Source of the DNA: Escherichia coli 042
GTDB lineage: Bacteria; Pseudomonadota; Gammaproteobacteria; Enterobacterales; Enterobacteriaceae
Strand: one strand, 5' to 3'
Length of the DNA stretch: 64,000 bases
NCBI RefSeq assembly: GCF_000027125.1
Contig: NC_017626.1
The position numbers were made by a program, and so were the translations under genes. The notes under the pieces were generated by a model that had not been told where the DNA came from, made no database searches, and saw only the letters and a program-made list of their open reading frames with translations. This document shows, in pieces, positions 2,284-4,248 of the stretch; position 1 is the stretch's first letter; every line of letters begins with the position of its first letter.

Positions 2284-4248
2284 TCAGGCGGCGGTGTTCG
2301 CCATACGTTGTTCGCGGTTTATCGCCTGCAAGGCGGAGACATCAACAATCAGTGCCACGCTGCCGTCGCCAAGAATGGTCGCAGCAGAAATGCCGGGGAC
2401 TTTGCGATAGTTACTTTCAAGGTTTTTAACCACAACCTGGTGTTGACCAATTAATTGATCCACCAGCAAGGCGTAGCGGCGACCGCCACTTTGTAAGATC
2501 ACCACAATTCCCTGGGTGGCTTCGGTTTTCGCGCCCGCGACGTTGAACACTTTCCACAGTTCGACGATGGGCAGATATTCACCCCGCACTTCCAGCACCC
2601 GCTCGCCGCCTGCCAGTGGATGCAGATCGGCTTCACGGGGTTGCAGTGATTCCATAACAGCATTCAGCGGCAGTATGAAAACTTCATCCGCAACGCGTAC
2701 GGACATGCCGTCGAGGATGGCCAGCGTCAGCGGCAGTAAAATGCGGATCGTAGTGCCAGTACCCTGCTTCGACTGGATTTCGACATGACCGCCCATCTCC
2801 TGGATATTACGTTTAACGACGTCCATGCCAACGCCGCGCCCGGAGACGTCGGTGACCTGCTCCGCCGTGGAGAAGCCAGGGGCAAATATCAGCATCGCGA
2901 CTTCGTCGTCGCTCATGTTTTCGCTGACGGTCAAACCTTGCGAGGCCGCTTTTGCCAGAATTCGCTCACGGTTTAGCCCCGCCCCATCGTCGGTCACTTC
3001 AATGCAAATGTTGCCGCCCTGATGTTCGGCAGACAGAATTAAATTTCCGACGCTGTTTTTACCTGCGGCGAGCCGTTTTTCTGGCAGTTCAATACCGTGA
3101 TCGAGGCTATTGCGTACCAGGTGGGTCAGCGGGTCGATAATGCGTTCAATCAGGCTCTTGTCGAGTTCAGTGGAACTGCCCACCAGCGTCAGTTCTACCT
3201 GCTTGCCGAGTTTTCCCGCCAGATCACGCACCAGCCGGGGATAGCGACTAAAGACATATTCCATCGGCATCATGCGAATCGACATCACTGATTCCTGCAA
3301 ATCACGAGCGTTACGTTGTAACTGCCCCATGCTGGTAATCAAATCACCATGATTAACCGGGTCCAGTTCACTGGAGCGCTGGGCAAGCATGGACTGGGTG
3401 ATGACCAGCTCGCCGACGAGGTTAATTAATTGATCAACCTTTTCTACCGCTACACGGATGCTGGTGGATTCACTACTGCGCGTCGTTTTTTCCCGCTCCA
3501 CGCGACCGGTTGGCGCTTGTTCGGCTGCTAGTTTAAGCACTGGTGGGGTGGATATTTTGGGCGAGACTTCTACTGTTTCAAAGGTAATCTGATCGGCTTC
3601 AATCACAAAACAAAGTACCGCTGTGATGTCATCTTCGGCGATGTCGCCCGGTAATATTGCCGAGAGAGAATCCGCCCCTTTCACCACGTCAGTTAACGTT
3701 GTCAGATGACCCAGCTCTTCTTCCAGCAGGTCGACTTCCCCGGCCTTCAGACGCGAAAGGATAATTCGTCGCGGCGACTGACTGCGGCTCTGCTCATCTT
3801 GCGGTTCACTTTTGGCAACCACACTTAATCGGGTCACTGCGGATGGCGTTTCGCCTTTCGCTTCTAATGCCAGTTGACGCAAGGCCTGGCAGATATAATC
3901 GAAGCTGGCGGCATCCGGCTCTTGCGACTGTTTATAAGCGTCGAGCTGTTCTTGCATGATGTCCTTCGTTTCCAAAAACAGATTGATAATGTCGGTGTTG
4001 AGTTGCATCTCACCTCGTCTGGCTTCGTCGAGCAGGTTTTCCATCAGATGTGTGGTTTCCTGCAAAACGCTGAAGCCAAAAGTTCCTGCCCCTCCTTTGA
4101 TCGAGTGGGCAGCCCGAAAGATGGCATTCAATTGTTCGGCATCTGGCGCTTCCGGCTGCAAAACCAGCAGATGCTGCTCCATATCAGCCAACAGTTCGTC
4201 CGCTTCATCAAAAAATGTCTGATAAAAATCGCTTATATCCATGCTCAC
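2284..4248 (-). CDS. cheA: chemotaxis histidine kinase CheA (654 aa from the GTG start)
   Basis: ORF-track 672-aa frame contains the CheA sequence [20 protein letters not shown]...; start placed at the GTG 18 codons into the ORF to give the 654-aa long form. Confidence 0.93.

Follow-up and report, generated by a model that had tools for sequence, protein, structure and literature searches.

A tandem translation start inside cheA of Escherichia coli 042 and the synonymously constrained block around it

The cheA gene of E. coli 042 raises the question of whether an in-frame ATG located within its coding sequence serves as a second translation start and, if it does, what distinguishes it in the DNA from the other in-frame ATG codons of the gene. 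The locus was analysed within a stretch of 64,000 nucleotides (the window), whose coordinates are used throughout, with (-) marking features of the minus strand. From the letters of this DNA, the initial annotation had proposed that cheA starts at a GTG at about 4248 and that an in-frame ATG found 97 codons downstream (Met98, at about 3957) is the start of the known short isoform, which does not carry the phospho-accepting His48. As developed below, ATG 3957 is almost certainly the textbook tandem translation start of E. coli cheA, from which CheA-short (CheA-S) is made.

The frame of the long form, CheA-L, spans 2284..4248 (-) and comprises 654 codons and a stop codon at 2284-2286 (-), according to the list of open reading frames and the translation. 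The full-length protein scores 1345 bits against the NCBIfam CheA equivalog NF007835 (cut-off 793). All five Pfam domains of CheA exceed their gathering cut-offs, giving a complete P1-P5 architecture, i.e. Hpt (P1, residues 8-100), CheY-binding (P2, residues 161-223), H-kinase_dim (P3, dimerisation, residues 261-324), HATPase_c (P4, residues 372-508) and CheW-like (P5, residues 514-640). In addition, the P1 sequence matches the solved P1 structures from E. coli and Salmonella (6s1k, 2lp4, 8c5v and 1i5n). By these sequence matches, the gene is cheA and encodes a class I chemotaxis histidine kinase with domains P1 to P5. The phospho-accepting residue of P1 is His48, as is well established (see also PMC1447658 and PMC3676780). 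Its codon, CAC, is located at 4105..4107 (-) within the motif AAHSIKGG and belongs to the long form only.

The genes that surround cheA are motB (4253-5179 in the list of open reading frames), motA (5176-6063), flhC and flhD upstream and cheW (1760-2263) and tar downstream, in the same order as in E. coli AR_0077 and K-12 MG1655. Of 5426 complete E. coli genomes, 5378 gave a cheA match to a query of 801 bases across the region. None of these 5,426 genomes exceeds 98.8% identity to the first 24 kb of the window; the gene order is the same and the lineage is other than K-12, an Escherichia/Shigella-type lineage that is not closely represented in the collection. Further from cheA, the intergenic region between flhD and uspC (7130-7900, about 770 bases) does not carry any insertion sequence, and MG1655 has IS1H upstream of flhD. 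Rfam matches above the gathering score were found at 1663-1740 (+), 53521-53607 (-), 61943-62032 (+) and 19955-20254 (-); they are the C0465 sRNA (between tar and cheW), DsrA, RseX and three tRNA genes.

The start codon of CheA-L, read directly from the sequence, is the GTG at 4246..4248 (-), exactly where the initial annotation had put it, and it is also the annotated start in MG1655 and AR_0077. The minus-strand reading at this point is CCGAGGTGACAGC followed by GTG AGC ATG GAT ATA AGC. The start is preceded by a Shine-Dalgarno sequence GAGGTGA (4253..4259 (-), -7.2 kcal/mol) that includes the TGA stop codon of motB (4255-4253); there are seven bases between GAGG and the GTG and four between the motB stop codon and the GTG. 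Such an overlap of GAGGTGA with the motB stop codon is an arrangement typical of translational coupling. The same motif (gagguga) is given as the ribosome-binding site of the E. coli long form in PMC8745638, which cites McNamara & Wolfe 1997.

The comparison of cheA across Enterobacterales relies on 80 loci obtained by a scan of a genome collection, to which the window was added (81 sequences). They come from Citrobacter, Enterobacter, Kluyvera, Erwinia, Pantoea, Serratia, Yersinia, Pectobacterium, Dickeya, Photorhabdus and Xenorhabdus, among others. RAGGTGA is the conserved form of the Shine-Dalgarno sequence of the long form in these cheA genes, and codon 1 is GTG in 75 of the 81. The longer string GTG AGC ATG (4240-4248 (-) in the window) is also found in 75 of the 81 genomes, which places an in-frame ATG at codon 3 as well. 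In Photorhabdus and Xenorhabdus (L077-L082, positions 1501-1509 of the loci), cheA has GTA as codon 1, immediately preceded in Xenorhabdus by an in-frame TAA; the start of CheA in these genera must therefore be the ATG of codon 3. The NCBIfam CheA model likewise starts at residue 3. For E. coli CheA-L, the choice of GTG as the initiation codon rests on the published and annotated evidence.

The internal start codon is the ATG of codon 98, read directly at 3955..3957 (-), i.e. 291 bases or exactly 97 codons 3' of GTG 4248 and in the same frame. It lies in the context GAA ACG AAG GAC ATC ATG CAA, which encodes part of the peptide ETKDIMQEQ. The initial annotation had advised looking for a Shine-Dalgarno sequence 5-10 nt before this ATG, and the hexamer GAAGGA is indeed found at positions -10 to -5 (3962..3967 (-)), inside the codons of T94, K95 and D96. 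Its strongest pairing to the 16S rRNA 3' end, through AAGGA with a four-base spacer, reaches -5.4 kcal/mol, so that the strength of this Shine-Dalgarno sequence is only moderate. The same hexamer (gaagga) is given as the ribosome-binding site of the short form of E. coli cheA in PMC8745638, after McNamara & Wolfe 1997. The frame of CheA-S opened by this ATG extends over 2284..3957 (-), with 557 codons and a stop codon, and omits residues 1-97. As the codon of His48 precedes the internal start, the short product would be devoid of this residue, as the initial annotation had stated.

This start is the second start annotated for cheA in the reference genome. In MG1655 (RefSeq NC_000913.3), b1888 has two CDSs, 1973360..1975324 (654 aa) and 1973360..1975033 (557 aa), the latter beginning at ATG-98 and corresponding to the CheA-S frame of the window. 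The published work agrees with this annotation. CheA-short starts at ATG-98 and the substitution M98L abolishes CheAS (PMC7696710); the short form lacks the first 97 residues (PMC8563088) and its synthesis is driven by its own endogenous ribosome-binding site (PMC2716512). The tandem starts are credited to Smith & Parkinson 1980 and Kofoid & Parkinson 1991 in PMC7696710 and PMC12350097, and cheA(L)/cheA(S) is a standard example of nested in-frame isoforms (PMC12350097, PMC11005335). As regards direct initiation-site data, no mention of cheA was found in the supplements of a Salmonella riboproteogenomics paper, and the wider literature searched gave nothing specific.

The window and K-12 MG1655 do not differ at the feature. 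Over 401 bases that cover both starts, the two sequences match except at four synonymous sites located in the first 80 codons, and there is no difference within 60 bases of the internal start or near the start of the long form. The frame, the GTG, ATG-98 and the motifs GAGGTGA and GAAGGA are thus the same in both strains, and the preservation of the two starts claimed by the initial annotation holds down to the base. The CheA proteins are identical at 652 of 654 residues, the differences (S259N and E484K) being far downstream. Since residues 1-258 are identical to those of K-12 CheA, the segment of P1 helix E (about residues 98-139) that is reported to bind CheZ is present in the short form. 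Because the sequence around the starts is identical to that of K-12, we infer that the internal start is used and the 557-aa CheA-S is expressed in this strain too.

Taken in a single genome, the motif before ATG-98 would not be sufficient to recognise a start. Among the 295 internal in-frame ATG codons of the 41 long open reading frames of the window, the median Shine-Dalgarno duplex is -2.1 kcal/mol and 17 (5.8%) reach -5.4 kcal/mol or better. Since cheA contains 17 internal in-frame ATG codons, about one comparable site is expected in it by chance. The motif of the internal start is therefore not beyond chance in one genome and cannot separate a real start from a decoy. Another ATG of the same gene, that of Met81 (4008-4006 (-)), illustrates this point. 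It is preceded by GAGGTGAG, in which GAGG (4016-4013) is followed by a four-base spacer and gives -6.5 kcal/mol, i.e. a duplex stronger than that of ATG-98 (-5.4 kcal/mol). Codon 81 is ATG in 77 of the 81 Enterobacterales genes. Only the Escherichia sequences (the window, MG1655 and L003) have the GAGG before it, other genera show free variation at the synonymous sites upstream of Met81, and the region is of average predicted accessibility (43rd percentile of the gene). These three features rule against Met81 as a conserved start. Met81 is thus probably a decoy; low-level initiation may occur there in E. coli and would give a product of 574 aa.

The comparative data on ATG-98 are of another kind. 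The alignment of the first 125 codons has no indels, and codon 98 is ATG in all 81 cheA sequences. The conservation of Met98 as an amino acid is to be read with some ascertainment bias, as the orthologues were fetched with six peptide patterns, one of which was ETKDIMQE. The ATG is also kept in loci that do not match this pattern (e.g. L055, L057-L060, L075 and L077-L082), the variants being E100D in Hafnia, Pectobacterium and Dickeya and EAKDIMQQ in Photorhabdus and Xenorhabdus. Furthermore, the patterns are degenerate at synonymous sites, which leaves the results on synonymous entropy unaffected. When the synonymous entropy was calculated over the whole gene, the twelve 10-codon windows of lowest entropy all fell within codons 82-102, with normalised values of 0.28-0.48 compared with a gene median of 0.72. 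The next lowest were codons 97-106, which overlap this segment, and then codons 1-10, which correspond to the start of the long form. After correction for amino acid composition (subtraction of the gene-wide mean entropy of each amino acid), the minimum was found at codons 89-100 (-0.56 bits). Only one of 2000 within-amino-acid permutations reached this value, the permutation minima having a mean of -0.28 (sd 0.05).

The codons used before ATG-98 give the same picture. F91 is TTT and E93 is GAA in 81 of 81 sequences. L92 is TTG in 84% of the genomes; by contrast, most of the conserved Leu columns of the gene (54 of 64) have CTG in the majority of genomes. Among complete E. coli genomes, 5371 of 5378 carry an exact copy of the 60-mer around the internal start, and for the control 60-mers on either side the figures are 690 of 5369 and 4634 of 5122. 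On these comparative data (invariant ATG-98, synonymous constraint and identity of the 60-mer), the internal start is, as judged from the alignments, beyond chance. The data shown here indicate that its region is under purifying selection at the nucleotide level.

What is conserved around ATG-98 does not appear to be the Shine-Dalgarno sequence itself. AAGGA (3962-3966 in the window) is found at this place in only 5 of the 81 cheA genes (the window, L003, L023, L044 and L065). The other 76, among loci L004-L082 and at about positions 1780-1795 of each, have AAAGAY (AAAGAT or AAAGAC) instead, whose strongest pairing is worth about -3.3 kcal/mol. These genomes still keep the ATG and a near-invariant block around it. 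The internal start thus appears, from this comparison, to work in most genera without a canonical Shine-Dalgarno sequence. As AAAGAY replaces AAGGA in 76 of 81 genomes, the AAGGA of E. coli looks derived and might be a lineage-specific strengthening of the site, by which E. coli would differ from most Enterobacterales.

The internal initiation region, ATYATCAACCTGTTTTTGGAAACNAARGAYATYATGCARGAACAG (3946..3990 (-), codons 87-101), is AU-rich and has little predicted structure. Its A+U content is 64%, compared with 43.5% for the whole of cheA, and positions -15 to +10 around ATG-98 rank, as the median across genomes, at the gene's 95th percentile of predicted accessibility. This block, almost invariant at synonymous sites, reaches 20-35 bases upstream of the ATG. 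We infer that this accessible AU-rich block, and not the Shine-Dalgarno sequence alone, recruits the ribosomes. A more precise function for codons 87-101 can only be put forward tentatively: an element for recruitment independent of the Shine-Dalgarno sequence (an AU-rich S1-binding enhancer or a standby site), a hairpin that presents the AUG, or a binding site for a factor controlling the CheA-L:CheA-S ratio would each be conceivable, and even taken together such proposals are rather unlikely to be right. As regards a hairpin, a weak AU-rich stem can be drawn at 3946-3981 (-), in which CUGUUUUUG (codons 90-92) pairs with CAAGAACAG (codons 99-101). This stem would set the Shine-Dalgarno sequence and the AUG of the internal start in a loop of 18 bases. 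Its two arms do not vary between the genomes and so show no covariation.

Two other explanations of these observations have to be weighed. The ATG and the hexamer might coincide by accident, Met98 being maintained for structural reasons in the four-helix bundle of P1 and GAAGGA merely encoding Thr-Lys-Asp, with no separate protein made. The base rate of such sites among internal ATG codons (about one per cheA), the case of Met81, which is widely conserved and has the better Shine-Dalgarno sequence in E. coli and yet is no described start, and the lack of AAGGA at ATG-98 in most Enterobacterales are what would be expected from such a coincidence. However, the synonymous sites just before Met98 are the most constrained of the gene, as only one permutation in 2000 shows, and selection at the protein level therefore cannot explain the pattern. 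The atypical codons, in particular the TTG of L92, likewise argue against it, as does the identity of the sequence to that of K-12, in which the isoform has been demonstrated and annotated. A mere coincidence is thus very improbable.

The constraint on codons 84-101 might instead be due to another overlapping element, such as an RNA structure, an internal promoter, an antisense gene or the target of a small RNA. Its extension 30-40 bases before the ATG, beyond a minimal ribosome-binding site, the weak hairpin of CUGUUUUUG and CAAGAACAG that can enclose the Shine-Dalgarno sequence and the AUG, and the presence of antisense open reading frames on the plus strand would fit with such an element. 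For a conserved RNA structure, the consensus of 25 diverse sequences has an energy of -1.81 kcal/mol and zero compensatory pairs, and in the window itself a stretch of 138 bases is no more stably folded than shuffled versions of it (z = +1.17); these results are compatible with selection that disfavours structure and does not promote it. No sigma-70-like promoter was detected on either strand of 3700-4500, and no Rfam family matches the region of the internal start. The antisense open reading frames, 3874..4290 (+) (138 aa) and 3956..4222 (+) (88 aa), were rejected as a gene, as only 10 of the 80 orthologues keep the frame open; in all likelihood they are fortuitous open reading frames over the region of cheA encoding P1. 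The shorter one begins at an ATG provided by the palindromic CATG of the internal start. Above all, an overlapping element would leave unexplained both the invariant ATG and the loss of CheAS upon the M98L substitution (PMC7696710), and it appears even less credible than a coincidence.

With ATG 3957 retained as the start of CheA-S, the expression of the two forms can be viewed as follows. A single mot-che mRNA would be read from two in-frame starts. Ribosomes that initiate at GTG 4248, with the GAGGTGA that overlaps the motB stop codon, would synthesise the 654-aa CheA-L with its His48. Other ribosomes would load independently (de novo) at the internal region, inside the sequence encoding P1, where GAAGGA at -10 to -5 and ATG 3957 lie within the AU-rich and weakly structured block of 45 bases. 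They would produce the 557-aa CheA-S, devoid of residues 1-97 (and therefore of His48) but provided with the last helix of P1, P2 and the dimerisation, ATPase and CheW-like domains. According to the literature, both starts are used on the same mRNA, and CheA-S, which lacks His48, cannot autophosphorylate, joins the receptor arrays and docks the phosphatase CheZ there.

The recruitment of CheZ by CheA-short is reported in PMC8563088, PMC3676780 and PMC1447658. Dephosphorylation of CheY-P is faster with the CheAS-CheZ complex than with free CheZ (PMC3676780). CheAS is not essential for chemotaxis; it offers CheZ a docking site and thereby concentrates this phosphatase at the receptor array (PMC7696710). 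The proportion of CheAL to CheAS has been given as about 45:22 (PMC4210811), and growth reportedly brings the CheA-L:CheA-S ratio from 4:1 to 1:1 (PMC1447658). The co-expression of long and short CheA has been described in Enterobacteriaceae (McNamara & Wolfe 1997, as cited in PMC8745638 and PMC3676780), and the ATG and its block are conserved in the 81 cheA genes compared here.

Tandem starts of this kind exist in other bacterial genes and serve other functions there. ClpB is another case in which an in-frame internal start gives a truncated isoform. In infB, which encodes IF2 alpha and beta (PMC12350097, PMC11005335), a single mRNA is likewise read in frame from two starts, and a functional module at the N-terminus is missing from the shorter product. 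Unlike these genes, cheA loses the phosphorylation site upon truncation and gains an exposed CheZ-binding surface.

The start of CheA-short has been known since 1980 and is annotated in the reference genome; as such, it is ordinary. What is mildly new is only quantitative. The block around the internal start is, from the comparison of 81 Enterobacterales genomes, the part of cheA that is most constrained at synonymous sites. In most of these genomes a canonical Shine-Dalgarno sequence is absent from the internal start, and the better-looking pair of Shine-Dalgarno sequence and ATG at Met81 is not conserved and is probably a decoy. The locus is of value mainly as a positive control, both starts having been located to the base from the raw sequence. 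Synonymous entropy, A+U content and predicted accessibility, taken together across orthologues, flag the internal start without prior knowledge of it. This combined comparative test separates ATG-98 from Met81 and is applicable to candidate internal starts in less-studied genes.
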